A stretch of DNA of 64,000 nt, taken from the IMG/VR virus record IMGVR_UViG_3300037130_000236, one strand, 5' to 3'. Source of the DNA: a virus. The notes beneath the pieces are model-generated. The model was not told the origin of the DNA and searched no databases. It was given only the letters and a program-made list of their open reading frames with translations. Shown piece by piece: positions 1,627-60,266 of this stretch (position 1 is the stretch's first letter; each line of letters opens with the position of its first letter). The translations under genes were made by a program, and so were the position numbers.

Positions 1627-2760
1627 CTACGCAGCGATCGCTTCCGGAACGCCAACGTGCCCGCTCAGGTACTTCATGACATCGTTGTACTGCTGGCGGG
1701 CCGTCTGCGTGCTGCACTGCAGCATGGCTGAGATCTGAACCCAGTTGAACTCCTTCCGGAAGATCATCTGGAGAAGCCAACGTTCAATGGTTGTCAGGTT
1801 GCGGAACAGCTTGTCGCTGGTCTGTCGGACCCAACCGTCGGTCATCTCGCTGATGTCGAGCTGGGCCTCCATCAGAGACGTGTCAGCTGCCCAGGCGGTG
1901 CCGTGTTGGTCCACGAAGTTGCCGTCCGCATGAGGCAGTGCATCGCTGGAGTGTGCAAAATCCTCGTGAGAGGAGACCTTTCCGATGCAAGTGATGCCCC
2001 GATCCAACTGAAGCACTCCCTCCCTGGACTCGAGTTCGCCCATCGCCGCCACAATATGTTCCGCCAGGTAGTAGCGAAACCACATGGCCGCGAAGTATGT
2101 AAACCCAATCGGCCCCGATTCAAAGAATGCTTGCTGAGGTGGCCAAGACGGCCCCCTTCGATAACCGATAACCTTCCTCTGGTTGCCGACCACCGAGACC
2201 AGGTACTGCTTGCGAACCAGCAGCCTAATGCACCCAACAGCGTCAAAACCCACAACTGATGAGACGGCGTCGGCTGTGAACTGCTGGAAGAATGTCTTCC
2301 CATCCAATACCTCACAAACTTGACGGACCTTATCCGTATAGAGCGGATCGTAACGCCGGCAGGCGCGAAGGAAACACATCACCATCGCGTCGTAGATGTC
2401 ATCCGTGGTCATGGTCTTGAAGGCCAGATGCAGGGTGTGACAAGTCTTCGACAGGACAGTCTGGTCGGGGTTGGATCCCCGCGGCAGCAACTTCTTCAGC
2501 ATCTCTGCGGCGTCCTTGCCGACCCGGGATGTCGGGTTCGGCAGCTGACCACGAATCACCATGTTGGTGTACTTGATCAGATAGCCGTGGAAACACTCCA
2601 CCAGCTTCAGAAAGGCCGCTTCTTTATCGGGCCCGTCTGGAAGCTTGGCGTAACGAATGGCGAGATCGTTGACCTCAGTCCGAACGTTGAAGTTGTCATC
2701 ATCGGGCACAACCCAGCCCGCTGCATAATGTGTTGCTGACAGAGTATACGATCTCGACAC
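1627..2760 (-). CDS. Sigma-factor-like transcription protein
   Basis: N-terminal region-2-like AFLKLVECFHGYLIKY; C-terminal region-4-like HTH LTTIERWLLQMIFRKEFNWVQISAMLQCSTQTARQQY; GTG start with GAGGGG SD. Confidence 0.55.
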   Translation of the reverse strand: MSRSYTLSATHYAAGWVVPDDDNFNVRTEVNDLAIRYAKLPDGPDKEAAFLKLVECFHGYLIKYTNMVIRGQLPNPTSRVGKDAAEMLKKLLPRGSNPDQTVLSKTCHTLHLAFKTMTTDDIYDAMVMCFLRACRRYDPLYTDKVRQVCEVLDGKTFFQQFTADAVSSVVGFDAVGCIRLLVRKQYLVSVVGNQRKVIGYRRGPSWPPQQAFFESGPIGFTYFAAMWFRYYLAEHIVAAMGELESREGVLQLDRGITCIGKVSSHEDFAHSSDALPHADGNFVDQHGTAWAADTSLMEAQLDISEMTDGWVRQTSDKLFRNLTTIERWLLQMIFRKEFNWVQISAMLQCSTQTARQQYNDVMKYLSGHVGVPEAIAA

Positions 2761-2809
2761 GGAAGCCCCTCAAAGTGTCCCCACACGGAGAAAGGCCCGT
2801 ACTCGATAG

Positions 2810-3196
2810 TTAGCTGATGCGTTTGTAGTCGAGGAAGACGACGATCTCATCTTCCGAGAAGTCCGCGCCGTAGGCGTCGCGCATGGCGAGCAGGACGCTG
2901 GAGTAGCTCTGGCTGCCGGAGTGGTTCCGATCGAGCACGGTGGCCGGAACCTCGTTGAACGGGCCGGTCCAGACCTTTTCCACGCGGCCGTGGCCGACAA
3001 TCTTGTGATCCAGTCCCTGGGTCAGAAGAAGATCATGTCCCCTGGGAACGTTGGCCCACTTGTCGCCGCGGCGGATGGTGTTGCCCAACTGCCCCGGCTC
3101 AAGACGGTTCACTTTGAGGTTGTGCAGCTCAGTCGGCAGCGGCGCCGGCGGAGGCATGAATGGAAACTGCATCTGTTCAATTGCGAGTGTTGCCAT
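2810..3196 (-). CDS. ASCH/PUA-like domain protein
   Basis: TIRRGDKW...GHGRVEKV...F...LLAMRDAY...DEIVVF pattern. Confidence 0.5.
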   Translation of the reverse strand: MATLAIEQMQFPFMPPPAPLPTELHNLKVNRLEPGQLGNTIRRGDKWANVPRGHDLLLTQGLDHKIVGHGRVEKVWTGPFNEVPATVLDRNHSGSQSYSSVLLAMRDAYGADFSEDEIVVFLDYKRIS

Positions 3197-3250
3197 GGAA
3201 ATGTTCCTCGTACTTCTGAATTGTTGATGGTGGGTCCGGTACTACCAAAG

Positions 3251-3466
3251 CTAGGCGGCGATGGGCAGTTCTTCGGCCAACACAACCTTGTCGTCGCCGA
3301 TGATCTTCATGCCCGGAACGAGCGTCAGGATGGCAATCGTCTTGACGAAGCTTGTGCCCTTCGGATCTTTGTAGAAGCTCACAGTTTGCTCGCCGAGGTT
3401 CAGGTCGTCGGCTTCAATGTCAACGTCCTGCGACGGGTCTTCGATGTAAGAGACGTGGTACTTCAT
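3251..3466 (-). CDS. Hypothetical protein
   Basis: 71-aa ORF with GGAG SD, in operon orientation. Confidence 0.65.
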   Translation of the reverse strand: MKYHVSYIEDPSQDVDIEADDLNLGEQTVSFYKDPKGTSFVKTIAILTLVPGMKIIGDDKVVLAEELPIAA

Positions 3467-3496
3467 GGTGCCTCCGGTTTCGGTTGGGGCCGTAGA

Positions 3497-4201
3497 CTAT
3501 GCCGCGGCCGGATGATCTTTCAGCCAGGTCTTCACCACGTCGGAGACTGTCTCCTTCTGGTGAGCCAGCAGGTTTCCTTCTTGCGTGTTGGTGATGGCGC
3601 GGCCCAGTTGAACCAGGCTGAAAGCGTCACAGATGTTGTCGTCGAAGAACTTCTCGTGCCAGCGGTCGAGCACTTCCATGAGCATGTGCTCTTTCTTGGC
3701 AGTGCCTTTCCCGGTCACGAACTTCTTCAACTGCGTTGGCGGGATCTCGATGAACGGAACACTCAAGTCATACAGCGCCACGCGGGTAACCCCGCCCAGC
3801 TCGCCCAGGCTGATGCCGCTCGACCCCTTGGCGCCGAAGGCATAGCCCTCGATCATCACCAGGCACGAGATACGTTCACCTTCTGTCGGCCGCTCAGGCG
3901 CACCCCACATGGCCAGGTTGGTCACCCGTTCCCGCAGCCAGACCAGACGGCGCATGCCCAGGACCGGGGTCACCTTCTTGGACTTGGTCGGATTGGGCTC
4001 CAAGACCCGCTCCTGACGGACTCCAGTCTTGACGTTGTACAGACACCATCCGGTGTGTTCGAGAGACATGTCGAGGCCCAGGATGTAGTCCGGAGCGGTC
4101 AGGCGTGTTTCGGTCAGAGCTGTGCTGGCCGGCTTGGGCAGTCCGGCGATCTTCGGGATCTTCAACTTGGGCACTCTAACTTTGGGTGCATTGGGAGTCA
4201 T
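3497..4201 (-). CDS. RuvC-like Holliday junction resolvase
   Basis: ILGLDMSLEHTGW, VMIEGY, LGELGG, PPTQLKKFVTG, DNICDA acidic motifs of phage RuvC-like enzymes. Confidence 0.8.
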   Translation of the reverse strand: MTPNAPKVRVPKLKIPKIAGLPKPASTALTETRLTAPDYILGLDMSLEHTGWCLYNVKTGVRQERVLEPNPTKSKKVTPVLGMRRLVWLRERVTNLAMWGAPERPTEGERISCLVMIEGYAFGAKGSSGISLGELGGVTRVALYDLSVPFIEIPPTQLKKFVTGKGTAKKEHMLMEVLDRWHEKFFDDNICDAFSLVQLGRAITNTQEGNLLAHQKETVSDVVKTWLKDHPAAA

Positions 4202-4204
4202 GAT

Positions 4205-4456
4205 TTACCTGCGGAACTGGCTCGGCACGTGGCCGAAGTGGTAGTGGTTTCCGGTGACTGGACAGAGGTAGACGTTCAAGTCCTCGCCATCGTAATAGGA
4301 GGCACCCATCAGGCTGAGCATCTCGCCTTCCGCCTGATCAAAGGTGTCGAAGGGCTGCTTCTTCAAACAGCACCGCTCAATGCGGAGTCGCTGGGAGCGG
4401 CACACCGTGCGACTCACACGCTCCCGCCGGCGCCGTATACAACGCTTGCTGGCCAT
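4205..4456 (-). CDS. Small basic metal-binding hypothetical protein
   Basis: CLKKQPF...YLCPVTGNHYHFGH (C/H motif common in small phage proteins). Confidence 0.6.
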   Translation of the reverse strand: MASKRCIRRRRERVSRTVCRSQRLRIERCCLKKQPFDTFDQAEGEMLSLMGASYYDGEDLNVYLCPVTGNHYHFGHVPSQFRR

Positions 4457-8074: not shown

Positions 8075-8759
8075 GTGCGAGACTCCTGCATCTTTTACCG
8101 ATGCAGTCCTCGCAATGAGAACCAGGCACCGGATGGTCGGTATTCCGAACAGCGTCCAGTATGGAAGTGACTGCCTTGCGTACCAAAGGCAGGTCGAAGT
8201 TCTTCATCTTCCAGGGTTCGCCGCGGAACAACGGCAGGTGATAAACCCCCGGAACTGTGTAATCGGTTGAGGCCATCAGATGCACATACCGGATCAGCTC
8301 GATCGCGCCTGGCTGCTGGCAATAAGCCGGCCGCCATTCGTGGGCCTGCAGGATCATCGGTCGCTCGTCTGTGCGCCGGTCATGGCGCCGGAGCACCACG
8401 GCGTACTCGCCTTCAATGCAGTCGCCCGCACATTCGACGCTGTACGCCTCGACCGGCTTCAGCACTTCGTAATGCTGAAGGAACAGATACGTCTTCCTGG
8501 CTGCCGTATTGCCGGCACGAAGCCCTGCATAGTAAGCCTGCTGATGATCGGGAGCCCATCCTGTCGTGTGCCCGTTCCAGATGCTTTCAAACTTGCCACG
8601 CAAGGTGGTTACAGGCACAAGTCTGCCCTTGAAAGCATCCAGGACGGCCCAGCGCAACAGCTTCTGAGCACATTCGAACGGAGTAGGCTGGTGCAGCCCT
8701 ACGCCGAACATCGGGCACTTCAGATGCAGTTCGATTTGGCGCTCGGCCAGTGTTGTCAT
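8067..8759 (-). CDS. Divergent PD-(D/E)XK/Cas4-like nuclease-fold protein
   Basis: N-terminal LKCP and C-terminal PVPGSHCEDC...C Cys cluster like RecB/Cas4-type phage proteins; catalytic residues unclear. Confidence 0.4.
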   Translation of the reverse strand: MTTLAERQIELHLKCPMFGVGLHQPTPFECAQKLLRWAVLDAFKGRLVPVTTLRGKFESIWNGHTTGWAPDHQQAYYAGLRAGNTAARKTYLFLQHYEVLKPVEAYSVECAGDCIEGEYAVVLRRHDRRTDERPMILQAHEWRPAYCQQPGAIELIRYVHLMASTDYTVPGVYHLPLFRGEPWKMKNFDLPLVRKAVTSILDAVRNTDHPVPGSHCEDCIGKRCRSLAHA

Positions 8760-9157
8760 GCCGCTTGCTTGCGCCTGGACAGCCTTGGCACGTCCTGGCT
8801 CTCGGTCTCGATCGGGGCCGGTTGGTCACCAATCTCGATCACGGTTGGCTCCGGGAATTGGATCAATTCATCCGCCGGAATCTGAACAGTCCCCTCTGCC
8901 GGCAGCTCAACTGTCGAATCCGTTGAGGTGTCGATGGCGGGTTCATCAGTGCAAAGCAAGCCCTTGGAATCGAACCGAAGGTCTTCAGCAAAGTGAACGA
9001 TATTGGCCGGGTTGTGCCCGGTGGTCTTTAGGAACGCCGCGGACATGCCGACTTTCTCGACCAACTGTTCGGGAATAAGGGCATGGTTACCGTGTCCCGT
9101 ATAGGTCCCACCGAAGAAGGTGGGATCGAACTCAACCTTGTAGTTCCGTGTGCTCAT
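8756..9157 (-). CDS. Hypothetical protein
   Basis: 133 aa, AGGAG SD. Confidence 0.7.
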   Translation of the reverse strand: MSTRNYKVEFDPTFFGGTYTGHGNHALIPEQLVEKVGMSAAFLKTTGHNPANIVHFAEDLRFDSKGLLCTDEPAIDTSTDSTVELPAEGTVQIPADELIQFPEPTVIEIGDQPAPIETESQDVPRLSRRKQAA

Positions 9158-12419: not shown

Positions 12420-13607
12420 CTAAGCCGCCTCAGCTTCTTGGAATTCCTCAGCCTCAGCTGCTGCCGCCGCCGCCTCGTCTCCGTGCTCAAAACCGACTTC
12501 AGGTGTTACATCCTCGCCATCGATCAGTTGCTTGATTCCGTCGAAGATGGAACGGTGCTCACCAATCAAATCACGATAAGAACTCAGTTCGCCCTGACAC
12601 TTCCAAGGGGCGCTCTTCTTCCGCTCATCGACATTCTTGCCCTCGCCGAGGATGTAAAACCATCCGCCGAACTTGGTGATGATGCCGACACGAAGCGCCT
12701 GCTTGAAATAGTCGTACTCCTTGGAGAACCCTTCACCGAAGATGTAATAGAGATCGGTATAGCGCCAGTTGGCGCCGAGCCTGTCCTTGACCAGCTTCAC
12801 ACGGGTGATGAACCCGTATGGGTCTTTGTCGCCCTCCGCCAGCTTGCCGATCACTTCCAATTCGAAGCGCAATGAGCTGTATCGAGGCACTGACTTACCG
12901 CCAGATGTCGAGTAGCTCACCATCGTTCCGCCGATGGATTTGTTTGCATGATTCAGCCAGCAAACATGTGAACGGCGGGTGGTGTTCTTGCGGAAAAAGC
13001 CCCTCATCTTCTTCGAGATGCCGCCGACCAGATCGTTATCGCTTGTCGTCTTGGCTGCGTCGGCTTCAGAGACCAATGCATCCACCGAATCGACAATCAA
13101 GAGATCGAACACGTTGGCTGCTTTGGCAATGAGGTCAAGCACAGCTTCCACATAGACCATCTCGGTCTCGCAGTCTTCCGCCTTGACTTTCACCTGCACC
13201 AGACGAACAGCATAAAGGCCCTTGGCTTCGGCTTCGGCCTTGTCGGTGATGAATCCCAGCTGCTTCAGATACGCAGCGGTCATGCTGCCTTCGATGTCGA
13301 GGATTCCCACGCGAAGACCCAGCAACTGCCAGGTCACACCGATGGCCAGAGCGAGACTGGTCTTGCCGGCATGCTCCTTCTTCGAATAGATCTCCGAATG
13401 GCGGCACTTGGGAAGCCCACAGTTGATGCCACGATCATCGATCGCATGATCCAGGCCGGGAAATCCGGTCGTGACGCACACGACATCGTTGTCGTATTCG
13501 TCCGCCAGCTTCAAGGCGTCGCCAAGACCCAGCGTGGCAAGCTGGGCCTCGAACGCATCATTGATGCCGACGGGCTCCTTCTCTTCCTTCTTCTTCCGTG
13601 GTGGCAT
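12420..13607 (-). CDS. recA: RecA-like recombinase
   Basis: TTGFPGLD, AGKTSLAL, ILDIEGS, LLIVDSVDAL, TSGGKSVPRYSSLRFEL; start MPPRKK at 13607. Confidence 0.85.
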   Translation of the reverse strand: MPPRKKKEEKEPVGINDAFEAQLATLGLGDALKLADEYDNDVVCVTTGFPGLDHAIDDRGINCGLPKCRHSEIYSKKEHAGKTSLALAIGVTWQLLGLRVGILDIEGSMTAAYLKQLGFITDKAEAEAKGLYAVRLVQVKVKAEDCETEMVYVEAVLDLIAKAANVFDLLIVDSVDALVSEADAAKTTSDNDLVGGISKKMRGFFRKNTTRRSHVCWLNHANKSIGGTMVSYSTSGGKSVPRYSSLRFELEVIGKLAEGDKDPYGFITRVKLVKDRLGANWRYTDLYYIFGEGFSKEYDYFKQALRVGIITKFGGWFYILGEGKNVDERKKSAPWKCQGELSSYRDLIGEHRSIFDGIKQLIDGEDVTPEVGFEHGDEAAAAAAEAEEFQEAEAA

Positions 13608-13614
13608 AGTGCTC

Positions 13615-14076
13615 CTAGTTGTTGGTTCCTTCCTCGATCCCGAGGAGTTTCTTGCAGAGGTTGACCCGGCTGTCCACAGACTTGACCAGGCCTTCGAGCC
13701 ATGTCTCCAGGCCGAGGAAACCAGCCAGGAGCCGCTTCTGATAGGCCTCGCGGTCGAAGTCAGAGATGCCCTTCTCGCGCTTGACAATGAAGTGATCGCT
13801 CTTGCAGTGCGAGACAAAGCAGGTGGCCAAGCCAAACCAGCGTGTGGTCCGTTCCCTCCAGCGTTCCACCGAAGTCATGTGGTCCAGCAGGTTGGCCACA
13901 TCATTGGACCGGACATCCAGACGCAGGAGCCGCAACAGCGGGTCTCCTGCCTCATAGATCGCATCCTCAAACTTGGCCATCTCCGCCATCAGCTCGGACT
14001 CTTTGGTGAGAGCCAGAATCTGCTGGACCCGACTGACAGGCATGACGGTTGGTTTGGGAAACTCGGCGCTAGCCAA
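13615..14076 (-). CDS. Hypothetical helical protein
   Basis: 153-aa ORF between Cas4-like nuclease and recA. Confidence 0.7.
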   Translation of the reverse strand: MASAEFPKPTVMPVSRVQQILALTKESELMAEMAKFEDAIYEAGDPLLRLLRLDVRSNDVANLLDHMTSVERWRERTTRWFGLATCFVSHCKSDHFIVKREKGISDFDREAYQKRLLAGFLGLETWLEGLVKSVDSRVNLCKKLLGIEEGTNN

Positions 14077-17634: not shown

Positions 17635-17868
17635 TCAGTCTTGTTTGGGTGGAACGATCACTTCAAGACGAAGCTTCTTGATCTTGAGCCGGCCGGTGGA
17701 GATTCGAGGATCGAGGGCATCCAGAGGAGCAGCCTTCAGTTCCTTCTTGAAGAGCCGGACTGCTTCCTCTGCATTGTCTGCAACCTGATTCTTGAAGGCC
17801 GTGAATGGAACCTCGGCCACACCGGAGAATTCAACCCGGTACTCGTGGAATCTACGCTGCTTGGGCAT
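17635..17868 (-). CDS. Hypothetical protein
   Basis: Start MPKQRR at 17868 overlapping upstream stop. Confidence 0.6.
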   Translation of the reverse strand: MPKQRRFHEYRVEFSGVAEVPFTAFKNQVADNAEEAVRLFKKELKAAPLDALDPRISTGRLKIKKLRLEVIVPPKQD

Positions 17869-18436
17869 AGAAGTTCCTCCGGGCACGCAGGCTCCGAAGA
17901 ACTTCCAAAGCGTGCAATGCGCCATTCAGCCCGCCATGAGGCTTCTTCTCTTCCCCGATGCCGAGATGAATAGCAACCGGGTCCTTGCCGATCTTGGGCA
18001 GTGGGCCAAGCACACCCCAGGCGATGCTGGGAATGTCGATCAGGTGCCGCTCGAATGGACCGTACTCTTCCTGCGAACGATCAGCTTCCTGATGCGGAAA
18101 GTAGAACCGGATGGCTTCATTCACGAAGCCCCAGTCAAAGCGTGTGCTGTACGAAGCAAACACACCCTGCCGCCCAAAGGCGAAGAAGGAGAGCCAGCCG
18201 TTGCGCGGATCTACCGCATGGCGCCAACCCTCAGGGGTATAGCCGTTGACCTGAAGTGCGATCGGATTCGCCAGTTCGATATGGGCCGGCGCAATCTTGG
18301 CACTGAAGGTCGCTTCGATGTCCAGGCTGGCCTGGTCCACACGAACGGCACCGATGTCGATGACTTCGTGTACGAGTGGGTCGAGACCTGTTGTTTCCAG
18401 GTCCACGATCACCAGAGAGCGATCAATGAAATCCAT
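17852..18436 (-). CDS. DEDDh 3'-5' exonuclease (DnaQ-like)
   Basis: IVDLETTGLD...EVIDIG ExoI, RFDWGF ExoII, HGGLNG ExoIII-like (last Asp appears replaced). Confidence 0.8.
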   Translation of the reverse strand: MDFIDRSLVIVDLETTGLDPLVHEVIDIGAVRVDQASLDIEATFSAKIAPAHIELANPIALQVNGYTPEGWRHAVDPRNGWLSFFAFGRQGVFASYSTRFDWGFVNEAIRFYFPHQEADRSQEEYGPFERHLIDIPSIAWGVLGPLPKIGKDPVAIHLGIGEEKKPHGGLNGALHALEVLRSLRARRNFYAQAA

Positions 18437-25641: not shown

Positions 25642-25953
25642 TTATGATTCCCCACTGGTATCCCTTTCTCGAGGTAAAAACACCACACGATAACGCTGCT
25701 TGAAGACGGACTGGGGTTGCCCGAACCGCCAGCGCCGATGTGGCCGCTGGCCGCGCTCTACAACCCGGAAGGTTCCGAAAGGCAGGTCAACATCCTCGTG
25801 TCGCTTCAAAGCAGCCTTGATTTCATCGAAGATCAAATTCACGATCTTCCTGGCTGCTCTGTAACTACAGCCTCGGCTGACAAGTACCAAAGCCAGGGGA
25901 TTGTTTCGGCCAATCCCCTGCTTGACGGGCTTTCGCTTTACGCTTTGGCCCAT
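25642..25953 (-). CDS. HU/IHF-like DNA-binding protein
   Basis: ARKIVNLIFDEIKAALKRHEDVDLPFGTFRVVER HU-like core. Confidence 0.65.
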   Translation of the reverse strand: MGQSVKRKPVKQGIGRNNPLALVLVSRGCSYRAARKIVNLIFDEIKAALKRHEDVDLPFGTFRVVERGQRPHRRWRFGQPQSVFKQRYRVVFLPRERDTSGES

Positions 25954-26888
25954 ATCTCTGCCTCGACAACTTCAACTCCCCAGTCATGCTTCTCTGGACC
26001 CAGGGCAATCCAGCCAGGCTCACCAAACTTCGGAACGATCTGGTGGTAGGCATCGTTCATGCACTTGGCCATGATGGCCTTGACCGCCGGAATGTCTTTC
26101 TCCGCGCAGACCATAACGATCTCGTCATGAACAACGAGGAGGAATCGGACATCGTACAACTTCTTGCCGACGAAGGAACCGCCGCGGACCGCCAGGTAGA
26201 TGTTTCGCATTGCGACCTTGAGGATGTCGGCATTCCCTGCCTGGATCGGCATGTTGCCGGCCCACCTCTTGATCTGGGCGATCAGCTCCTTGGCATCTTC
26301 AGCGTCATCGGCGGGCAGCGTATAGAACCGCTTCCTGCCTCTGGGGCTGCAACTGTAGCCGAGTTCGACTGCCAGCAGGCCCTGACGTTCCAACCACTGC
26401 TTCAGCACCTTGAAGGTGCCAAAGAACTCCTCGATGAATGTTTTGGCTTCGTCGATGCTCATGCCGGTCATCAGCGCCACACGAGTCGGGCCGGCGCCGT
26501 AGGGCACGCCGAAGGTCACCGTCTTGATGCGGGAGCGGATCAGCGACAGTTCGTTGTGGCGAGGATGGCTCTCGGAGTGACGAGCCAGTTCCATTTCCTC
26601 GTAGGTGAACTTGTAGCGGGCGCCGAACACCTTCGTTGCATTGAAGCTGTGAACATCCTGCCCTGAGTTGATGGCCGCGATCAGGATTGGATCTCCCGAT
26701 GCGTGGGCCATCAGCTTCACTTCGATCTGTGAGTAATCGGCCGCCAGGATATTGTACCCGGGTTCCGCACGAATCGCAGATCGCGGATCAGGGACTGACC
26801 ATTCCAGACTGTCCGTCTGGAAGTTCCAGTAATAGGTCTTGTCCCCGACCATCCCGAGTACCGCTCTGGCTTGAGTTGTTGCGCCCAT
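25938..26888 (-). CDS. polA: Family A DNA polymerase, C-terminal (palm/fingers) fragment
   Basis: Motif A AADYSQIE, motif B RSRIKTVTFGVPYG, NMPIQAGNAD, motif C LVVHDEIV; ATG at 26888 overlaps upstream TAA. Confidence 0.9.
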   Translation of the reverse strand: MGATTQARAVLGMVGDKTYYWNFQTDSLEWSVPDPRSAIRAEPGYNILAADYSQIEVKLMAHASGDPILIAAINSGQDVHSFNATKVFGARYKFTYEEMELARHSESHPRHNELSLIRSRIKTVTFGVPYGAGPTRVALMTGMSIDEAKTFIEEFFGTFKVLKQWLERQGLLAVELGYSCSPRGRKRFYTLPADDAEDAKELIAQIKRWAGNMPIQAGNADILKVAMRNIYLAVRGGSFVGKKLYDVRFLLVVHDEIVMVCAEKDIPAVKAIMAKCMNDAYHQIVPKFGEPGWIALGPEKHDWGVEVVEAEIWAKA

Positions 26889-36604: not shown

Positions 36605-36988
36605 TCAATCTGTGCCTGTCGGCAACATGGCGATTCCCGCCTGAGCTTTCAGGACATTGCGTTTGCGGAAGTGATCCGCCGGGAGAGCCAGCACGCGGTC
36701 CAGCTCTTGCTTTGTCAGCTTCTGGAAGTCCAGTGACAAAGCTCCACACAACCCAAGGAGGGTGATGCCAACTCCACCCATCTCCTGTTCAACCTTGCCG
36801 ACCGGCCGGGAGTAGACGTGGTTGACAATGCGAAGGGCATCCTCGTGAGGAACGCCCATCGCCTGGTTCAACTCGACCACCTCTTCCAGGAAGCGCCGGC
36901 CGCGTTCATGCTTGTCGCGGAAGACCTCCCACCCAAAACTGCTGGTGATCCAGCTCACGGTTCTGGCTGTCAGTTCATTGAGCTGCAT
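36605..36988 (-). CDS. MazG-like NTP pyrophosphohydrolase
   Basis: RFLEEVVEL...EQEMGG all-alpha pattern. Confidence 0.55.
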   Translation of the reverse strand: MQLNELTARTVSWITSSFGWEVFRDKHERGRRFLEEVVELNQAMGVPHEDALRIVNHVYSRPVGKVEQEMGGVGITLLGLCGALSLDFQKLTKQELDRVLALPADHFRKRNVLKAQAGIAMLPTGTD

Positions 36989-38043
36989 CAGGCCGCCCTC
37001 TGGAACTGCGTACGCCGGGCTGCTGCTTCCCGGACGATGTTGCAGATCTTGAGAACCGATGCCACTGTTGCGGACAGCACGAGGCCGCTGATCGGTGTAT
37101 CGTGGTCCGTCAGCTCATGAATGAACTGCGACAACAGATCCGCACGGACAGGCTGGCAGCCTTGATCGAGCAACAGATAGCGCAGGTGGGCAGTGAGCCT
37201 CACCCTGATCTCGTCGCCATCACGGGGCTCGGCGAGGGCGAGCTGTTTCCGGCAGATGTCCCAGTCTCCTCTGACCACCGCGGCGTTGAGCACCTTGATG
37301 TCAACCTTGCCGGAAAAGTCGGAGGACACGGCTGCAGCTTCGAGTGTGGCGCCATTGGACAGCCGTTCAACGGCCGACACGACATCGCCTGGTGCGAAGA
37401 TGCTCCGCTCAACCAGAAGCTGGGTCAGAGCAAGAACGGTCTGTTGATCGAAGCCGCCTTCCACCACAAACGGAGAGGCGTAATTGATCAACTGTTCAAT
37501 CTCTGAAGCACTGAGCCCATCCACAGTGAACTGGCAGCTCCCACAGCGTTTCTGAAGCGCCGGGATCAGCTTGGTTGGATCGGTCGTGCAGAAGATGAAG
37601 ATGTTGCAGGAGTCAGCCTGCTCAAGCGGCTTGAGCAGAATGTTCTGGGCGGCCGTCGTCATCTGCTGGCACTCGTCGAGGATGAACACCCGGTAGAAAC
37701 CGGCTCGCGGTGTCCAGCGCAGATCATTCAACAGATCGCGCATGTCCTCTGCCTTGCCGAAGGCCGCGGCGTTCATCTCATTGATCTCGAAGTCAGCATT
37801 CTCCAGGCAGGCGTCACAGGGTTCCCCGAACTCGCCGTGGGTACAGTTGACAGACATGGCCACAATCCTGGCCAGGGTGGTCTTGCCGCCGCGCGAAACC
37901 CCGACAAACTTCAGGGCGGTTGGAACCCGTCCGGCGGAGAACTGGTTCTTGAGTTGTTCGATGGTGTCGGTGTAACCGATCACCTCGCTGAAACGTCGCG
38001 GCCGCAGTGAGACGCTCAGGTTCCGTTCTTGTGTGTCAGGCAT
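36988..38043 (-). CDS. DnaX (gamma/tau)-like clamp loader subunit
   Basis: RPRRFSEVIG, GGKTTLAR, CGE..C Zn, ILDECQ, NILLKPLE, KRC. Confidence 0.9.
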   Translation of the reverse strand: MPDTQERNLSVSLRPRRFSEVIGYTDTIEQLKNQFSAGRVPTALKFVGVSRGGKTTLARIVAMSVNCTHGEFGEPCDACLENADFEINEMNAAAFGKAEDMRDLLNDLRWTPRAGFYRVFILDECQQMTTAAQNILLKPLEQADSCNIFIFCTTDPTKLIPALQKRCGSCQFTVDGLSASEIEQLINYASPFVVEGGFDQQTVLALTQLLVERSIFAPGDVVSAVERLSNGATLEAAAVSSDFSGKVDIKVLNAAVVRGDWDICRKQLALAEPRDGDEIRVRLTAHLRYLLLDQGCQPVRADLLSQFIHELTDHDTPISGLVLSATVASVLKICNIVREAAARRTQFQRAA

Positions 38044-42014: not shown

Positions 42015-42941
42015 TTAGGCTGCCTGCTGTTCCTGCAGTCGGCTCTGAGCCTCCGGACTGGTCGCGGCATTACGTCGCGCCTTGGAGCATTTCGGACAGA
42101 CACCAACTCCGTACTGGGCCATGCCCCGTAGGTAGATGTCCCAGGCGTGCATAGACTGGGTGATGTTGTCCTTGTCCGTGTACTGGATGGTCACGATCTG
42201 CTCACCGCAATCGTTGCAGTAGTTGATCGGGTAGGCCCATTCGGGGATCTGGGGCTGCTGTTTCCATTGCCCGGTCTTCGGGTCATAGGGATAGCTCAGC
42301 TTTCCGAAGGAATAGAAGTAGATCCCAGGACCCCACTTGGACATGGCGCGCTTGTAAGCCTGCGCTTCTGCCGAGGTGATCCAGTTCTCGTCCGCTGTGT
42401 CCTTGGCGCCGCTCGAATCCTGCCAGACCCATCCCAGAAGCGGTCCCATCCAGATGCCGACCCGGACGATCGCACCCACCTTGTGGGCACTGATCTCCGA
42501 CTGCGGCGAGATGACTTCCTTGGTTTTGTAATCGAGTTTGGCCTTGATGATCTTGGTGAACGGCGCGATGTCCACCCGGGTCACTTCGGACTGCCAGAAG
42601 CCATAGCCGATGACTTCGTTCATTCGTGCGGTATAGACCCGCGAGTCGGCATAGGCTGCCGCGGTTGCGGTCTTGGCCGTGTAATCGATCGTCTGGGGAA
42701 GGAATGACACATCGTCGGGATGAAATGGCGCCTTCAGCAGGTCGATGGTTTTGGCCCAGTCCTGCAGGTAAAGCGGAAGAGCCCGCTCGTCTTGACCGCC
42801 GCCGCGCATGAGCCTGTCGATGTCTGTCAGAATATGAGGTTCAGCGACAGCTTCAGGTTCCTGCGCCTCGACAGCAGAGGGAACTTCAGCAGTGGAAGCA
42901 GCCGCAACCAGTGCGGGTGCATTGTTCTTTCTCGGTGGCAT
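42015..42941 (-). CDS. Rad52/Rad22-family (Sak-like) ssDNA annealing protein
   Basis: LKAPF..DDV, AYADSR...RMNEVIG, AEAQAYKRA..KWG.G.YFY; C-terminal CxxC...CPKC. Confidence 0.85.
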   Translation of the reverse strand: MPPRKNNAPALVAAASTAEVPSAVEAQEPEAVAEPHILTDIDRLMRGGGQDERALPLYLQDWAKTIDLLKAPFHPDDVSFLPQTIDYTAKTATAAAYADSRVYTARMNEVIGYGFWQSEVTRVDIAPFTKIIKAKLDYKTKEVISPQSEISAHKVGAIVRVGIWMGPLLGWVWQDSSGAKDTADENWITSAEAQAYKRAMSKWGPGIYFYSFGKLSYPYDPKTGQWKQQPQIPEWAYPINYCNDCGEQIVTIQYTDKDNITQSMHAWDIYLRGMAQYGVGVCPKCSKARRNAATSPEAQSRLQEQQAA

Positions 42942-42943
42942 GA

Positions 42944-43111
42944 TTATTCCTCGAACCAATTGAAATGGAACCGTTGGCCGCCGCTCGGAATGTGTTTGGC
43001 CGGAGCCCCACATTTCGGACAGGGTTTCTGCTCAGTGCCCATCGGCACCAGCTCTTCAAACTGATGCCCACACTTCTTCTCGTCGGGGCATTTGAATTCG
43101 TACAGTGGCAT
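42944..43111 (-). CDS. FmdB-like zinc ribbon protein
   Basis: MPLYEFKC....CGHQFE...CPKCG. Confidence 0.8.
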   Translation of the reverse strand: MPLYEFKCPDEKKCGHQFEELVPMGTEQKPCPKCGAPAKHIPSGGQRFHFNWFEE

Positions 43112-43812: not shown

Positions 43813-46152
43813 CTAAGCAGCCGCCGGCAACTCGACTGCCTTGACCTCCTTGCGAATACGTTGGACAAGGAAGGTATTCCGGCAGTTGACGTTGCACTGC
43901 TCCACTGCCCGCTTGACCGCGGCCCAGGACGCGAGGAAGACGATCATCTTCCTGGCCCTGGTGTTCGCTGTGTAGAGAAGGTTTCGCTCAAGCATCGGAT
44001 AGTGGTGCATCGTCATGAGGAGAATTACAATTTCAAACTCGCTGCCCTGGCTCTTGTGAGTCGTGGCCGCGTAAGAGAGCGACAGGTTGTCCGTCTCCTT
44101 GAAGGGATAACGAACCAATCGGCCGTAGAAATCGATCAGGATCTCTTTATGGGTTTCATCGAATTCCTTGATGAACCCGATGTCGCCGTTCGAGATCTCC
44201 ATGCCCTGCTGGTAGTTGTTAGCCAGTTGCATCACACGGTCACCGGTCCGAAACTTGTGACCTTTGACAGCTACTTCCTTGCCGTTGGGATTCAGTGTTT
44301 CCTGGAGAACCTTGTTGAACTCAATCGAACCTGCTGGGCCGATTCGCATCGGCGTCAGGATCTGAATGTCCCTGATAGGATCGACGGCGTGCTTGGCAAC
44401 GATCCGTTGAATGACCGGAGGCAGCTTCGCTTTGATCCACTCCAGATCGTCCTTGCCCTCCGGTCCCTTGGGAACTTCCATGAAGTAGGAGTCGGCTTCA
44501 ATGCCTTGCCCCTTCTTCACGTCCGGAAAGATCGGCGTCTGTCCGGTCCTGATCTTGTAGGCATTGCGGATGATCAGCGAGTTCTCAGCCTGACGGAAGA
44601 TGGTCTCCAGTTTGGTGACCTGGATCTTCTCGCAGTTGATCATGTCGCGGAGGACCATCCCGGGCCCAACCGAAGGGAGCTGGTCCACGTCACCCACAAA
44701 TACCACTGAACAGGAGTCAGGTACGGCGTCCATCAGGGAATCGGCGAGCTGGAGATCCAGCATCGAAGCTTCATCGCAGATCAGCAGGCTGCAATTGAGC
44801 GGGTTCTTCTTGTTGCGCTGGAAGTCATTGTCCTCATAGCTCCACTCCAGCAGTTTGTGGACCGTCTGCGCTTCCTGACCGGTGACTTCAGCCATGCGCT
44901 TGGCAGCGCGGCCAGTAGGCGCGCACAGCTCGACGTTGAGACCCAGCCGGGCTGCCGTGCGCAAAAGCATCTTGAGGGTGGTTGTCTTGCCAGTGCCGGG
45001 ACCGCCGGTCAGGATCGACAGGTTGTTCCGAAGAGCTGCAATGACCGCCTGACGCTGTTGTTCGTTCGGCTCTTGGCCCAGGTCCTTCTCGACACGTTCC
45101 AGTGTCTCCTCGATGCCGCGAGGCGCAATATGCGGAAAGCTCTGCAGCTCTCCGATCCGTCGAGCCAGTCTAGTTTCTGCATCGTAATAAACAGACAGAT
45201 AGTAGAAAGTCATCGCAATGCCGTTCAGCTTAACTGGCTGGCGAATAAGATGCTTGGGGCCTGGATCGCTGGCGAGAGACGACATCTTGATGACAGCTTG
45301 CTCTGCGACCTCCATCGGAAGCTGTTCGTTTGGGTTGAGAGTGCCTTTTCTACTACTGGCTACCTTTCGAACTGTACCCACGAGCTCATCCTGTGTAAGG
45401 AAGCAATGGCCATTGCTGGTTGCTTCTGAGACCACATGCGTAACAGCGCCTTCAGTCCGTTCCGAGCAGCGTTCCGGCCAGCCCATACGGGCAGCCATCT
45501 CGTCTGCCTTTTTGAAACCGATCCCACTCAGCTTCATGGAGCGGTAGGGATTTTTCTCCAGGATTGTAATGGCGTCCTTGCCGAACGCGGCGAGGAACTT
45601 CTTGCCCCAGGCGCTTGGGATGTCAAAGCGGGCCAGCCACAATTCCAGTTGGCGGAGCACGGGGTCATGTTGGCTACGCCAGGACGCCACGATCTTGTCG
45701 GCCTTATCAGCTCCGATTCCGGCGCACTCGGTGAGGCGTTCGGGAGAGTTGTCAAGGATGTTGATGATCGCGACACCGAACTTCGACATCAAGGCAGCGG
45801 CCGTTTTCTTGCCGATGCTCTTGACGTGATGCTCCAGGTACTTCTGAATGCCCCGGATGGTATCGGGAATGACTCTTACCGCCTGCTCGGCTTCAAACGT
45901 CGGCCCGTACTTCGAATCGTCGACCATCTTGCCGTGGAACTCGAACAGATCATCCGGATCCCAGTCGGGGAATGAATTGCATTTGACGGCCAGATCCTTC
46001 TGCCCCGGTTCAACCGGATGCACGGTCAGGATCCGAAAGGTACAACTTTCCTCAGGCTCGCTGCCTTCGGTTGTGGTCTCGGGTGGTTTGTCCATGACAC
46101 GCGGATACCGCTGCCACAGAACCTGACCCCTGAAATGCTGTTGCTCGTCCAC
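43813..46152 (-). CDS. recD2: RecD2-like SF1B helicase
   Basis: HhH repeats, GGPGTGKTT, APTGRAAKR, DEASM, GDVDQLPSVG, THKSQGSE. Confidence 0.95.
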   Translation of the reverse strand: MDEQQHFRGQVLWQRYPRVMDKPPETTTEGSEPEESCTFRILTVHPVEPGQKDLAVKCNSFPDWDPDDLFEFHGKMVDDSKYGPTFEAEQAVRVIPDTIRGIQKYLEHHVKSIGKKTAAALMSKFGVAIINILDNSPERLTECAGIGADKADKIVASWRSQHDPVLRQLELWLARFDIPSAWGKKFLAAFGKDAITILEKNPYRSMKLSGIGFKKADEMAARMGWPERCSERTEGAVTHVVSEATSNGHCFLTQDELVGTVRKVASSRKGTLNPNEQLPMEVAEQAVIKMSSLASDPGPKHLIRQPVKLNGIAMTFYYLSVYYDAETRLARRIGELQSFPHIAPRGIEETLERVEKDLGQEPNEQQRQAVIAALRNNLSILTGGPGTGKTTTLKMLLRTAARLGLNVELCAPTGRAAKRMAEVTGQEAQTVHKLLEWSYEDNDFQRNKKNPLNCSLLICDEASMLDLQLADSLMDAVPDSCSVVFVGDVDQLPSVGPGMVLRDMINCEKIQVTKLETIFRQAENSLIIRNAYKIRTGQTPIFPDVKKGQGIEADSYFMEVPKGPEGKDDLEWIKAKLPPVIQRIVAKHAVDPIRDIQILTPMRIGPAGSIEFNKVLQETLNPNGKEVAVKGHKFRTGDRVMQLANNYQQGMEISNGDIGFIKEFDETHKEILIDFYGRLVRYPFKETDNLSLSYAATTHKSQGSEFEIVILLMTMHHYPMLERNLLYTANTRARKMIVFLASWAAVKRAVEQCNVNCRNTFLVQRIRKEVKAVELPAAA

Positions 46153-47571: not shown

Positions 47572-47803
47572 TGGTGTTGTTTTTCGGCTTCTCAGCAACC
47601 ACAATCGAAACTTTCATCTGGGTGATGCTGTGACCCTTCACGCCCTTCCGCTTTTTGACTTCTTTCCAGGCACGGTTGAACGCCGTGCCATAATCGCTGG
47701 CCTTGGCGGTTGCCGACTGCCCCATGTTGACACTGGTAAGCTCGGGCATCTGGAAGTAGAAGGTGTAAGTTCGCAGGTTGTCTTCTGCACCGATGATTTC
47801 CAT
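47564..47803 (-). CDS. Hypothetical protein
   Basis: TGATG coupling at 47803. Confidence 0.6.
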   Translation of the reverse strand: MEIIGAEDNLRTYTFYFQMPELTSVNMGQSATAKASDYGTAFNRAWKEVKKRKGVKGHSITQMKVSIVVAEKPKNNTNG

Positions 47804-48501
47804 CAGGCTGCCTCTCTTTCCTGTGGATACCAAGCCTCTGTCAGCGCCGGCGTCACACATTCGCACTCGAAGAACTTGCGATCGACAGGAAACGGGTTGG
47901 CTTCCGCAAAGGCTAGCATCTTCGCTCTGGTCTCCGCGTCAGGATCCATATCGTGCCAGCTGTTGCGGCCGAACGCGCCAAATGCAGTGTCCATCTTGGC
48001 GAGTAGCTCGTCGAGTTCAGGCACCGGTCTTTCGAGAAGCCTGCGAGTAATCCTGTACCCATAACACCGGAAAGGACGGACTGAACGGCACCTCACGAAG
48101 AGAGGCTTGCAGTTGCTCTTCAGTTTGATCCAACCTTCAGGTTTGAATCCCCGGCGGCCAGCCGCCTGCTCTTTGATCGTTGCACGCCAGCGCGCGGCAT
48201 AGTCGTTCGGCGGTTCAGGGACATCGGTGAAGAAGGTCAACGGACAGGTGTAGTGGGAAGGTCCGCAGCTCTCATCGAGCGACTTGACTCCCCAGCCTTC
48301 CCCTTTGAACCGCTGCATGATGTCGTATCCGATGTAGCGATGCGAGGCCACGCCTGGTGCAGCGATCTCCCAGACCGACCATAAGATGTTGCCCTTCGTC
48401 ACCTTCTTGAGACAGCGTCGGGTAGTTCCACCGTACTCGCTGTCCGTGGTCAGTTGACGGATGAGTGACTTGCGTGAGTAGTATCCAGAGATCCAGCCCA
48501 T
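47803..48501 (-). CDS. DUF6927-like protein (plasmid/ICE-type)
   Basis: MGW...W.VWE...GWGVKSLDESCGP..Y.CPL...A.RWRA. Confidence 0.6.
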   Translation of the reverse strand: MGWISGYYSRKSLIRQLTTDSEYGGTTRRCLKKVTKGNILWSVWEIAAPGVASHRYIGYDIMQRFKGEGWGVKSLDESCGPSHYTCPLTFFTDVPEPPNDYAARWRATIKEQAAGRRGFKPEGWIKLKSNCKPLFVRCRSVRPFRCYGYRITRRLLERPVPELDELLAKMDTAFGAFGRNSWHDMDPDAETRAKMLAFAEANPFPVDRKFFECECVTPALTEAWYPQEREAA

Positions 48502-48503: not shown

Positions 48504-49124
48504 CTATACTGCTTCCTCAAGTGGCGGGCACTTGCAGTTGGTGAGACGTTCTTTACAAGAGCCACAGAGGGCATAGCCCTCGGGATCTACACGCAGGGGC
48601 CGGGATTCGGTCAAACGGCCGGCACGAAACAGTTGGCCGGCAGAGATGCCTCTGACCTTGGTTTTGACAGGCAGCGGCCCGAACATGTTGTCGATGATGG
48701 TGCCGTCGAGAGCGAGGTTGCAGAGATAATCGGCATCTCTGTTTTCTTCCCGCGGATACCACACGTACGAAATGACAATGCCTGAATAGAAGGCCAGGAT
48801 TTCCCTGATCTGATGTTGAAGTGCTATCAGGTTCTCGTCCTTGCATCTCCACTCTCTGGTCATCTGATTGACCAGGAGCTGGGAGTCCGCGCGGAACTCA
48901 ATACGATCGACGTCGGATGTGAAGTCGAGCAACGGGTCCAGGCTGTTTACAGCCAGCAGCAGACCCCGGTACTCAGCAATGTTGTTGCTGCCGATCAGAG
49001 TCTCGTTCAGGCAGGCAACGTATTTGTGCTGCTCATCGAATGCGACGAAGGCACAGGACGCTGGGCCCGGCTCGGTGGCTGAGTTTGAACGGCTGCCACC
49101 ATCCGTGTAGATGATCAGCTTCAT
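48504..49124 (-). CDS. rnhA: Ribonuclease HI
   Basis: YTDGGSR, NNIAEYRGL, ADSQLLVNQM, REENRDAD. Confidence 0.9.
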   Translation of the reverse strand: MKLIIYTDGGSRSNSATEPGPASCAFVAFDEQHKYVACLNETLIGSNNIAEYRGLLLAVNSLDPLLDFTSDVDRIEFRADSQLLVNQMTREWRCKDENLIALQHQIREILAFYSGIVISYVWYPREENRDADYLCNLALDGTIIDNMFGPLPVKTKVRGISAGQLFRAGRLTESRPLRVDPEGYALCGSCKERLTNCKCPPLEEAV

Positions 49125-49642
49125 GCCGCCAGTTTCCGTTCGTGGCGGCGGAACTGAATCGTCTTCTTCATCCACTTGTCGAGGGTCATCTTCCGATTCA
49201 GCTTGCCCTGGTGATCGACGATCAAGATGCCGTTGAGATGGTCGATCTCATGCTGAATGACTCGTGCTTCCAGGCCCTCGGCGACCATAGTGATCGGTTG
49301 AAAGTCTTCGGTCAGCCCAGTGACGCTGATCTCCGTTGGACGAGTGACCTTGACCTGCAAGCCGGGCAGGCTCAAGCAACCCTCCGCGACCGTCGATGTT
49401 TCGGAACCGAACTCAATGATTTCGGGATTGGTCAGGGACTGCATCTGTCCCTGGCTGTCCTGGTAGATGATGACCCGCTTCAAGACGCCGATCTGATTGG
49501 CGGCCAGGCCCTGTCCGCGGAAGGAGAGGCAAGCTTCCTTCATGTCGCCGATCAGATTTGTGAGACCCTCGCCGAACTCAGCATCAACTGGTTCGCAGGT
49601 CTTGAGAATTACGCCGTCCGGATATTCGCAGATTGCGGTCAT
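49121..49642 (-). CDS. def: Peptide deformylase
   Basis: GQGLAANQIG, EGCLS, QHEIDH intact. Confidence 0.95.
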   Translation of the reverse strand: MTAICEYPDGVILKTCEPVDAEFGEGLTNLIGDMKEACLSFRGQGLAANQIGVLKRVIIYQDSQGQMQSLTNPEIIEFGSETSTVAEGCLSLPGLQVKVTRPTEISVTGLTEDFQPITMVAEGLEARVIQHEIDHLNGILIVDHQGKLNRKMTLDKWMKKTIQFRRHERKLAA

Positions 49643-50614: not shown

Positions 50615-51232
50615 TCAGAAGGGGATGTCGTCGTCGATCAGGGCCTGCTGCGCGGGCTGGACAGCCGAAGGAGCGGGTTGCCGCTGCTGTGTCTGCCGGG
50701 CTGCGGGAGCTGCCGCTTGTGTGCGGGGCGCCGCGGCCTGACGAGGAGCTGCCGCCTGACGCGGGGCCGGTTGCTGTGCGGGCGCAGCGGCCTGCTGATG
50801 GTTCCCGTTCCCGCCATTCCCGTTGCTGTTGCCGTTGTTTTCGCTCTTGGGCACCACACGGAACGGACCGGAGATGTCGCGCGCAACGCAGCGGAAGCCG
50901 ACGGCCGCGTTGTCGATCACATTGCCGCTCTGCTTGTCCTTCTTCGAATAGGTCGTGAACTCCATCTCGCCATCGTTGATGACGATCGTGTCGCCGGGGC
51001 TGAACCGTTCGGCAACATACTGAGCCTGACGGCCGAATGCAACCACGTTGACCCAAGTGGTCTTGTAGGCCGTGGTCTGATCCTGGCCGTTGTAGTTGCG
51101 GACATCGCCCTTGCCTTCGCCGACCCACCGCTCGGTGGCGACGCCGACCTGCACCCAAGCCTTGTCGCCTTCACCCTGCAACTCCGGCTGCTTGCCAATC
51201 TTGCCATCGAAATGAACCTTGATTCCTGCCAT
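50615..51232 (-). CDS. ssb: Single-stranded DNA-binding protein
   Basis: OB-fold (TTWVNVVAFGRQA), Gln/Pro/Ala linker, DDDIPF tail. Confidence 0.9.
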   Translation of the reverse strand: MAGIKVHFDGKIGKQPELQGEGDKAWVQVGVATERWVGEGKGDVRNYNGQDQTTAYKTTWVNVVAFGRQAQYVAERFSPGDTIVINDGEMEFTTYSKKDKQSGNVIDNAAVGFRCVARDISGPFRVVPKSENNGNSNGNGGNGNHQQAAAPAQQPAPRQAAAPRQAAAPRTQAAAPAARQTQQRQPAPSAVQPAQQALIDDDIPF

Positions 51233-58206: not shown

Positions 58207-58560
58207 TCATGCAGCTTGAATGCCTAAGCTATCGAGGTACTTACTCACGTCGGGATCACCGTTCACGCGCTTCCGTTCGAGCAGAGGATAGGCTGCCGAG
58301 TTAATCTGAATGAACTCAGCCAGGCGGGCATATAGTGGTGGGTTCTTCTTCAGCAGGGCAAGAATCTTCATGCGTGCCGATGGAAAGTAGCACACCTTGT
58401 CTTGAGCGATGGCCGGGAAGATCACCCAAGCCAGATCGAACCAGGCGTTGGAACCAATCACAACACCTTCACTCATCCTGAAGCTCAGGTACTCTGCGAT
58501 GTCGGCGATCAACTGGCAACGACCTGCGCTATCCAAGGGGATTCGCTTTCGTGATTCCAA
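58207..58560 (-). CDS. Hypothetical protein
   Basis: 117-aa ORF; start uncertain. Confidence 0.55.
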   Translation of the reverse strand: MESRKRIPLDSAGRCQLIADIAEYLSFRMSEGVVIGSNAWFDLAWVIFPAIAQDKVCYFPSARMKILALLKKNPPLYARLAEFIQINSAAYPLLERKRVNGDPDVSKYLDSLGIQAA

Positions 58561-59314: not shown

Positions 59315-59333
59315 CGTATCCTCGAATCAAGAA

Positions 59334-59481
59334 CCAGGGCCGGTGTGAACAACAATCCCGCTAGCAAAGCGTTCAACGGTCACTCCGTTTATCCACTTAA
59401 CTCAGCCATCTCTAGGCGACTGCTATCGCCTTACAGATCTGGCGTAGGACTCCCTTCCCACTGGGTCTGCTCCTGCCCTGG
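59334..59481 (-). ncRNA. Candidate structured RNA downstream of tRNA pair
   Basis: Noncoding; CCAGGGC/GCCCTGG closing stem and internal GGCGA/TCGCC hairpin. Confidence 0.2.
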
Positions 59482-59603
59482 CTATTGAAAATGGCCCGTC
59501 ACGATTTGGATTTCAAATCCAAAACCGGGAAAAGTCGCCAAAACCGAATAACAACAAAGAGCGATTTTGGCCTCGCGTGAGGCCTTCTCCCTATTTCTGA
59601 AGT

Positions 59604-59690
59604 TGGTGCAGATGAAGAGACTCGAACTCATACGCCGTTACGGGCACCAGCACCTCAAGCTGGCGTGTCTGCCAATTCCACCACATCTGC
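59604..59690 (-). tRNA. tRNA-Leu(GAG)
   Basis: Complete cloverleaf, CCAGC-TTGAGGT-GCTGG, long variable arm, encoded CCA. Confidence 0.95.
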
Positions 59691-59699
59691 GCTACAAGG

Positions 59700-59773
59700 T
59701 GGCTGGCGGTCAGGGATTCGAACCCCGATAAGCGCCTCCAAAGGGCACTATCCTACCGTTAGATGAACCGCCA
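59700..59773 (-). tRNA. tRNA-Gln(TTG)
   Basis: Complete cloverleaf, GTGCC-CTTTGGA-GGCGC, encoded CCA. Confidence 0.93.
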
Positions 59774-59777
59774 GTAG

Positions 59778-60266
59778 TTAAGCTGCTTCCGAGGTTACTG
59801 CGGCCGTTTCATCTTCCAAAGGCTCGGGAATGACCGTCGGCTCATCCCCTTCCTTGTAGTAGATGGAATGAGGTTTGCCATCTTCGACAGGAAGACGATA
59901 ACCGATAAGGTTTGGCATCCCGGCGTAAGGTGGACAAGCCCGAACGGTGCCTTGAACTGCCGTGAGGCGATAGCGAGTACCATCTGATGTCTGAATCAGT
60001 TGGCCCGCTTCATAAGGACTCTCCATTGCGATCGCGTGGTTGCGCTGCTCGATTGCTCTTGCAAGTTCAAACTGTCGTGTTTGCACACGTTTTACCAGCT
60101 CGGCGACTGTGGTCGCCGACATGTTGGCCTTCATTCGAGGATCGTTGTCCGGCCAGCAAATGTCGATGATGGAGTCCAGATGCCTACCCTGATGGGTGTG
60201 GTCTTTGTCGCACCGCGCGACACAACCGTCGTCCAGACGAATCCACTTCGCACAGATGAAACCCAT
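59778..60266 (-). CDS. Hypothetical protein
   Basis: 162 aa, N-terminal C/H motif. Confidence 0.65.
   Translation of the reverse strand: MGFICAKWIRLDDGCVARCDKDHTHQGRHLDSIIDICWPDNDPRMKANMSATTVAELVKRVQTRQFELARAIEQRNHAIAMESPYEAGQLIQTSDGTRYRLTAVQGTVRACPPYAGMPNLIGYRLPVEDGKPHSIYYKEGDEPTVIPEPLEDETAAVTSEAA

Follow-up and report, generated by a model that had tools for sequence, protein, structure and literature searches.

The stretch of viral DNA analysed here (the window) comprises 64,000 nucleotides of IMG/VR record IMGVR_UViG_3300037130_000236 and was presented in pieces spanning positions 1,627-60,266. Its genes lie nearly all on the minus strand, at a GC content of 55-58%. Pfam searches identified among their products a RuvC-like resolvase, a RecA-like recombinase, a DEDDh exonuclease, a split family-A DNA polymerase, thymidylate kinase (Tmk), a MazG-like enzyme, a clamp loader, a Rad52-family annealase, RecD2 and peptide deformylase (Def), as well as a DnaG-type primase and a helicase, and the RNA genes are two tRNAs and a permuted transfer-messenger RNA (tmRNA). 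The subject of this report is the C-terminus of these proteins, many of which end in two alanines (AA). An initial annotation, made from the sequence without database searches, had listed 16 complete open reading frames (ORFs) with this ending. All 16 are present on the minus strand with the endings claimed, and a partial ORF at the window edge ends in QVAA. Pfam also agrees with the identities proposed for RuvC, RecA, DEDDh, the polymerase N-fragment (PolA-N), Tmk, MazG, the clamp loader, Rad52, RecD2 and Def. The labels "sigma-like" (1627-2760) and "DUF6927" (47803-48501) found no support in Pfam or PHROGs at E ≤ 1e-3.

A large temperate phage of Acidobacteriaceae is the source of the window, which holds its replication and recombination module, since the same element is carried at 93-99% identity by a 178-kb IMG/VR "provirus" contig (G002) and, at 96% identity to the window, is integrated in a contig of 3.26 Mb that belongs to the metagenome-assembled genome (MAG; G003) of an uncultured member of the Acidobacteriaceae. 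Outside the window region, G002 has genes for the major head protein, portal, terminase, tail sheath and a tyrosine integrase. The phage is contractile-tailed and temperate, ~180-210 kb in size, and integrated in peat-soil Acidobacteriaceae. Four whole virus records were used for comparison, together with metagenome and IMG/VR loci. G004 is a 214-kb relative (104 reciprocal best hits with G002, median protein identity 54%), and G005 and G006 are more distant relatives that are complete at 205-215 kb. The genes common to G002 and G004 only number 37 and are mostly small unknowns. When 24 kb of the window were searched by megablast, no GenBank phage matched.

The frequency of AA endings was assessed in a curated base set of 87 minus-strand ORFs of the window. 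Thirty of these (34%) end in Ala and 16 (18%) in AA. Alanine makes up 8.5% of all residues in the window and internal Ala-Ala 0.95% of dipeptides, and against the latter expectation the 16 endings give a binomial p of 2.6e-16; the initial estimate of about one gene in six, in excess of what Ala frequency would predict, was thus borne out. The frequency of Ala declines from 34% at the last position to 22, 14, 6 and 2% at positions -2 to -5, a steepness that marks a feature of the terminus and not an Ala-rich tail. The terminal Ala codons are mixed synonyms, which excludes a DNA repeat as the source.

An excess of this kind could be functionless if it were produced by composition, by overlap with Shine-Dalgarno (SD) sequences or by false ORF calls. 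The initial annotation had cautioned that EAA endings can coincide with the SD of a coupled downstream gene, and this is true of five of the 16 cases (four EAA and one RAA), which carry an SD-like 4-mer in their last 11 nt before a coupled gene. The overlap does not, however, explain the excess. AA endings occur in 11 of 66 window genes without GGAG, GAGG or AGGA in the last 11 nt and in 6 of 27 that are uncoupled to a downstream start, and over two whole genomes the rate is equal in coupled and uncoupled genes (11-14% each). The codons for Lys and Glu at position -3 are not biased to AAG or GAG, the SD-like choices. We therefore rejected SD overlap, coupling of genes and codon bias as the cause, and also composition, on the following counts. 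On 800 kb of host chromosome distant from the prophage, with the same ORF caller as used for the window, 9 of 711 ORFs (1.3%) end in AA, which is the number expected from position-specific Ala frequencies (9.8); the odds ratio of window to host is 17.6 (p = 1e-10). Whole-genome counts are 22/184 in G002 and 31/239 in G004, against 6/248 in G005 and 6/232 in G006, or ~2.5% in the latter two at a comparable Ala content (8.6-8.8%, in a range of 8.6-9.8% across the genomes). Neither the host nor the Ala-matched relatives show an excess, 10 of the 16 ORFs hold Pfam domains, and the ending is retained by orthologues that use different codons, as described below. A functionless origin is accordingly hardly credible. 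The excess of AA endings is strongly non-random and artefact is excluded.

Conservation of the ending was evaluated in the reciprocal best hits of G002 and G004. Both proteins end in AA in 13 pairs, only the G002 protein in 4, only the G004 protein in 5 and neither in 82 (Fisher p = 1.3e-9), so that AA is kept in G004 for 13 of 17 AA-ended G002 proteins, compared with 5 of the 87 others. When the 17 pairs are aligned from the C-terminus, -1 and -2 are 82% identical and positions -3 to -12 only 0-35% (~18%), and the residues just before the tip are less alike than in other pairs, where identity is 30-45%. Of the 13 pairs that conserve AA, 12 use different codons for the two alanines. Representative tails are RHERKLAA and EIAMLKAA for Def, EFQEAEAA and ESALPTAA for the RecA-like protein, and SIQLLEAA and LEPLDKAA for a pair with 27% identity overall. 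Because the tip is kept while the tail has diverged and the Ala codons have changed, these alignments indicate selection at the peptide level, which holds the last two residues of the protein constant and lets the tail before them drift.

The ending also has a phylogenetic distribution. Orthologues of AA-tailed proteins lack it in 7 of 8 cases in G005 and 9 of 9 in G006, and on this comparison AA is a trait of the lineage, not one intrinsic to the enzyme families. PolA-N homologues were followed to identities as low as 35%, and about 40 of the 73 have AA as their last residues, with varied residues before it. Tmk homologues do so in 7 of 24 cases at 55-84% identity, 22 of 46 at 45-54% and 0 of 27 below 45%. 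In metagenome loci where PolA-N ends in AA, 18 of 194 other genes have the same ending, compared with 3 of 213 elsewhere (p = 4e-4). On a quick PolA-N tree built with the tail columns removed, for which neither a single origin nor a number of gains is claimed, the AA state is clustered and at least 8-11 changes are needed. As a test of host-driven convergence on AA endings, a second, unrelated prophage was sought in the host MAG by means of HK97 capsid and TerL, and no match was found. Taken across the clade, selection has put AA on, and retained it in, ~12-13% of all proteins and ~17% of those outside the head/tail block.

As the initial annotation had proposed, the AA-tailed proteins belong mainly to replication and recombination, with nucleotide metabolism in addition, and their Pfam identities agree with this. 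They are large, annotated enzymes whose genes lie scattered across a span of more than 100 kb. The late block, which contains the major head, portal, terminase and sheath genes, is poor in them: in G004, AA occurs in 2 of 54 head/tail genes and in 29 of 166 other phage genes (p = 0.012), where G002 and G004 are orthologous and their gene-class contrasts are therefore non-independent samples. Stop codons are also split by gene class. Nearly all genes of the head/tail block (3.9-75 kb in G002, 137-210 kb in G004) end in TAA, 39 of 51 in G002, and the order in the remaining genes is TGA > TAA > TAG. Both termination and ssrA tagging at stop codons depend in part on the final two residues of the nascent chain, and the phage has its own tmRNA, so Ala-Ala codons might be favoured for translation, either for efficient termination or for the avoidance of stalling and tmRNA tagging at stops. 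We find this very unlikely, given that the head/tail genes, as the most highly expressed class and nearly all TAA-ended, have the fewest AA endings, that all three stop codons follow AA endings, and that the bias is missing from the host and from G005 and G006, although G006 has a tmRNA.

The AA-ended ORFs are listed in Table 1 with the other features of the window to which we refer. Two of these are proteins with different C-termini: the single-stranded DNA-binding protein SSB has the classic acidic tip, and the end of an RNR-like protein of 958 aa is found in all relatives. Both show that C-terminal motifs with a function can be recognised in this genome, and termini with a known job are kept instead of AA. 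An N and a C fragment with small ORFs in between make up the family-A polymerase, and this split arrangement is widespread, with 73 homologues having the length of the N fragment.

Table 1. AA-ended ORFs and other features of the 64,000-nt window (uncoupled, no coupling to a downstream start)
Feature	Position	Strand	C-terminal end	Evidence and relatives
377-aa ORF	1627..2760	-	AIAA	No Pfam or PHROG match; G004 orthologue (61% identity) ends EKAA
71-aa ORF	3251..3466	-	PIAA	Uncoupled
RuvC-like resolvase	3497..4201	-	PAAA	Pfam PF02075, E 1.6e-6; uncoupled
133-aa ORF	8756..9157	-	KQAA	G002 copy ends KYAA; AA lost in G004 orthologue
RecA-like recombinase	12420..13835	-	AEAA	Pfam PF00154, E 1.6e-22; G004 orthologue (49% identity) ends PTAA
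Cdc48/p97/VAT-like AAA+ ATPase, 659 aa	15406..17385	-		Two matched stretches; best PDB match 6chs, E 1.8e-60
DEDDh/RNase_T exonuclease	17852..18436	-	AQAA	Pfam PF00929; L034 orthologue (55% identity) ends QEAA
Split family-A polymerase, whole	25938..29069	-		
Split family-A polymerase, C fragment	25938..26951	-		
PolA N-fragment (3'-5' exonuclease and thumb)	27669..29069	-	QEAA	Pfam PF01612
Thymidylate kinase Tmk	29069..29851	-	YEAA	Pfam PF02223
MazG-like (PRA-PH) pyrophosphohydrolase	29851..30348	-	KAAA	Pfam PF01503; G004 orthologue ends EVSA
RNR-like protein, 958 aa	31639..34515	-	(S/T)GCS	
Clamp loader (DnaX/delta'-like)	36988..38043	-	QRAA	Pfam PF13177; G004 orthologue (53% identity) ends RSAA
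Rad52-family annealase	42015..43013	-	QQAA	Pfam PF04098; G004 orthologue ends QKAA; L109 homologue (33% identity) ends AVAA
RecD2 helicase	43813..46152	-	PAAA	Pfam PF13245, PF14490, PF18335; G004 orthologue (67% identity) ends PKAA
232-aa ORF	47803..48501	-	REAA	phrog_21047, unknown function
Peptide deformylase Def	49121..49642	-	KLAA	Pfam PF01327, E 1.4e-43; G004 orthologue (45% identity) ends LKAA
SSB	50615..51232	-	DDDIPF	
117-aa ORF	58207..58560	-	IQAA	Uncoupled
162-aa ORF	59778..60266	-	SEAA	Uncoupled
Permuted (two-piece) tmRNA, predicted 30-aa tag ANTGYVASMTFEVFEPATAAENTLGVLAAV	62218..62486	-		Rfam RF04321, 70.7 bits against a gathering score of 47; ARAGORN 62062-62514
Edge ORF, putative coding (3' end, runs off the window)	63864..64000	-	QVAA	

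The tmRNA of the element had initially been thought to add an ending other than AA. According to ARAGORN predictions, the tag is unusually long and in the window and G002 (30 aa) it does end in VLAAV, but the orthologous tmRNA of G004 encodes a tag of 32 aa ending in YLAAA. The two tag frames can be aligned over ~30 codons. The non-AA end of the tag is thus not conserved, and the initial statement holds for the window phage only. G006 has a one-piece tmRNA instead, with the tag AEFEELPLAA.

A candidate reader of the AA tails is present in the host. The tag of the host tmRNA is ANQELALAA, the last two residues of which are the same as the AA ending. In the host MAG, clpP (571387-571929) is located directly upstream of clpX (572019-573237), which scores 576 bits against TIGR00382, and the loops of the encoded ClpX are kept, namely GYVG (pore-1), ITRDV (pore-2) and GGRKHP (RKH loop). 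In the E. coli ClpXP structure, six residues in these loops contact the Ala-Ala-COO- of the ssrA tag and control specificity (PMC7652416). The enrichment, its specificity to the phage as opposed to the host, the conservation at the peptide level and a host reader with intact loops are what the analysis shows directly. With modest confidence we lean towards the explanation that the AA tails are encoded ssrA-like degrons, read by host ClpXP, which shorten the life of non-structural proteins. From the sequences we infer that host ClpXP, the reader of Ala-Ala-COO- on its own tag, would bind the phage tails as degrons of the ClpX "C-motif 1" type. Degradation would then shorten the lifetimes of the polymerase, clamp loader, recombinases, nucleases, helicase, nucleotide enzymes and deformylase, and virion proteins would be largely spared. 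A plausible pay-off would be that DNA-active enzymes from leaky prophage expression are cleared and that the early/middle programme is reset. Timed turnover by ClpXP had already been suggested in the initial annotation, and that suggestion is strengthened in so far as AA is selected at the peptide level, matches the end of the host ssrA tag and is found alongside a host clpP-clpX pair with AA-reading loops.

Several observations weigh against this explanation and qualify the suggestion. In E. coli, terminal Ala-Ala is necessary but not sufficient, and is strengthened by an upstream Leu; the favourable context has a non-polar residue at -3, typically Leu, and no Gly, Pro or short polar residue (PMC10862746). 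Tail context was compared in 86 distinct AA tails from the window, G002, G004 and 13 metagenome loci. Position -3 is occupied by K in 23, A in 14, E in 13, V in 9, Q in 6, L in 5 and I in 3 of these and by Gly or Pro once, the context rules being those known from E. coli. Lys is enriched 5.7-fold and Glu 2.6-fold at this position, and Leu and Ile are not enriched. The commonest tip is KAA, and Gln is enriched 4.2-fold at -6. The enrichment of Lys does not come from SD-like codons, because Lys codons are unskewed, and it may reflect a reader preference other than that of E. coli ClpX. The host proteome avoids AA endings no more than chance predicts, so that in this host AA by itself may signal only weakly. 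A tail of this type should be accessible, unstructured or able to fray; at positions -3 to -12 the tails are hypervariable, but the AlphaFold2 model of PolA-N, the one protein modelled (mean pLDDT, the predicted local distance difference test score, 85.9) has a confident terminal helix at residues 438-465 of 466, not a disordered tail. The gene-class contrast is a trend only in G002 (3/51 in the late block, 19/133 among the others, p 0.13), and a few late proteins do end in AA, for example the G002 portal. Finally, the covariation of AA endings with PolA-N across metagenome loci loses power when restricted to GC ≥ 0.52 (18/194 vs 1/46, p 0.14). The polar [K/E/A/V/Q]-A-A context suggests weak, graded degrons and not signals of ssrA strength; if the AA tails do act as degrons, their strength is probably low or graded, or else acidobacterial ClpX has different preferences.

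Some of these properties would fit a role outside proteolysis. Short linear motifs in general typically combine a conserved tip with a hypervariable tail, Lys or Glu at -3 is unlike the LAA of the host tag, and the tagged set is functionally coherent, covering DNA transactions and nucleotide supply. The AA tip might accordingly be a non-proteolytic tag that docks many proteins on one hub for assembly, localisation or remodelling, the hub being a partner from the host or the phage or the Cdc48/p97-like AAA+ ATPase that the phage encodes (Table 1). Orthologues of this ATPase, which is unusual for a bacterial virus, occur at 42-67% identity in all four related phage genomes. As a reader of AA it was rejected, since it is not specific to the AA clade and is equally present in G005 and G006, both without AA tails. 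Other candidates were sought in G002 and G004, and no phage-encoded ClpX, ClpP, SspB, S41 peptidase or PDZ domain was found. Moreover, Def, Tmk and MazG share no obvious partner with the recombinases, and two alanines give little binding specificity beyond the known ClpX pocket. Docking is for these reasons an unlikely account of the tails.

Degrons read by host ClpXP, the explanation that we prefer, and a decoy function would draw on the same evidence for a host reader. As decoys, weak AA substrates would flood host ClpXP at induction and thereby protect other phage proteins or block host responses that depend on ClpXP, for example through antitoxin turnover or SOS and stress regulators. The tip is found on many different abundant early/middle proteins, and the phages with AA tails have no ClpP of their own while their tail-less relatives have one, both of which would suit a decoy. 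Selection is, on the other hand, gene-specific and stable across orthologues, which fits regulation of each protein, and one abundant protein would suffice as a decoy; nor was a precedent found in the literature searched. We regard a decoy as distinctly improbable.

The relatives with and without AA tails differ in two further genes. G005 and G006, both without AA tails, encode a ClpP-family protease (C1:199229-199732 and C1:15436-15969, respectively) and no integrase, and G002 and G004, both with AA tails, encode a tyrosine integrase (C1:307-807 and C1:210585-211088, respectively) and no ClpP. This hints, from two genomes against two, that AA tails are linked to lysogeny and to dependence on the host Clp system. 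A more far-reaching proposal, which we offer as speculation and think rather doubtful, is a genome-scale "lifetime code" written in the C-terminal dipeptide and used by the whole of this temperate jumbo phage clade. Weak [K/E/A]-A-A tips on a fifth of the non-structural proteome would allow ClpXP to erase leaky prophage expression and to time the lytic programme, or would saturate ClpXP, and the trait would track lifestyle.

Phage proteins that are substrates of host ClpXP include lambda O, the Mu transposase MuA and Mu repressor variants, and temperate phages use host ClpXP to destabilise replication and transposition proteins. Lambda O, with its N-terminal motif, and MuA, with a basic tail resembling C-motif 2, are individual cases that rely on other signals and not on genome-wide AA. 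Among the closest known systems is the tmRNA (ssrA) tag together with the natural C-motif 1 degrons of ClpX, as these are summarised in PMC7652416 (Flynn et al. 2001, 2003, cited therein). The AA ending differs from these in that it is encoded in the gene and not added in ribosome rescue, is spread over 12-18% of the phage proteome, is preceded by Lys, Glu or Ala and not by Leu, and is so far a finding of sequence analysis. A bacterial parallel is sigma-AntA, an ECF sigma factor of Streptomyces, which ends in AA in 67 of 71 orthologues, is degraded by ClpXP and is stabilised when AA is changed to DD (PMC7142297). There a conserved AA tip has been demonstrated to act as a built-in short lifetime, as we propose it may do here, but in a single bacterial regulator and not in dozens of phage enzymes. 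The literature searched, which misses most subscription journals, yielded no account of AA tails spread over a whole phage proteome.

Encoded Ala-Ala degrons are known for single bacterial regulators, and a maintained, proteome-wide counterpart in a virus is not described in the literature searched. The change of AA to DD would be a simple experimental handle, and the hypothesis can be put to a direct test because AA endings stand out clearly against both the host (1.3%) and the tail-less sister phages (2.5%). If the tails do set protein lifetimes, they would constitute a post-translational layer for temporal control and prophage silencing in large phages, and one that can be read from sequence. 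They would then also aid the annotation of early versus late genes in uncultured phages and would mark host ClpXP as a dependency factor.

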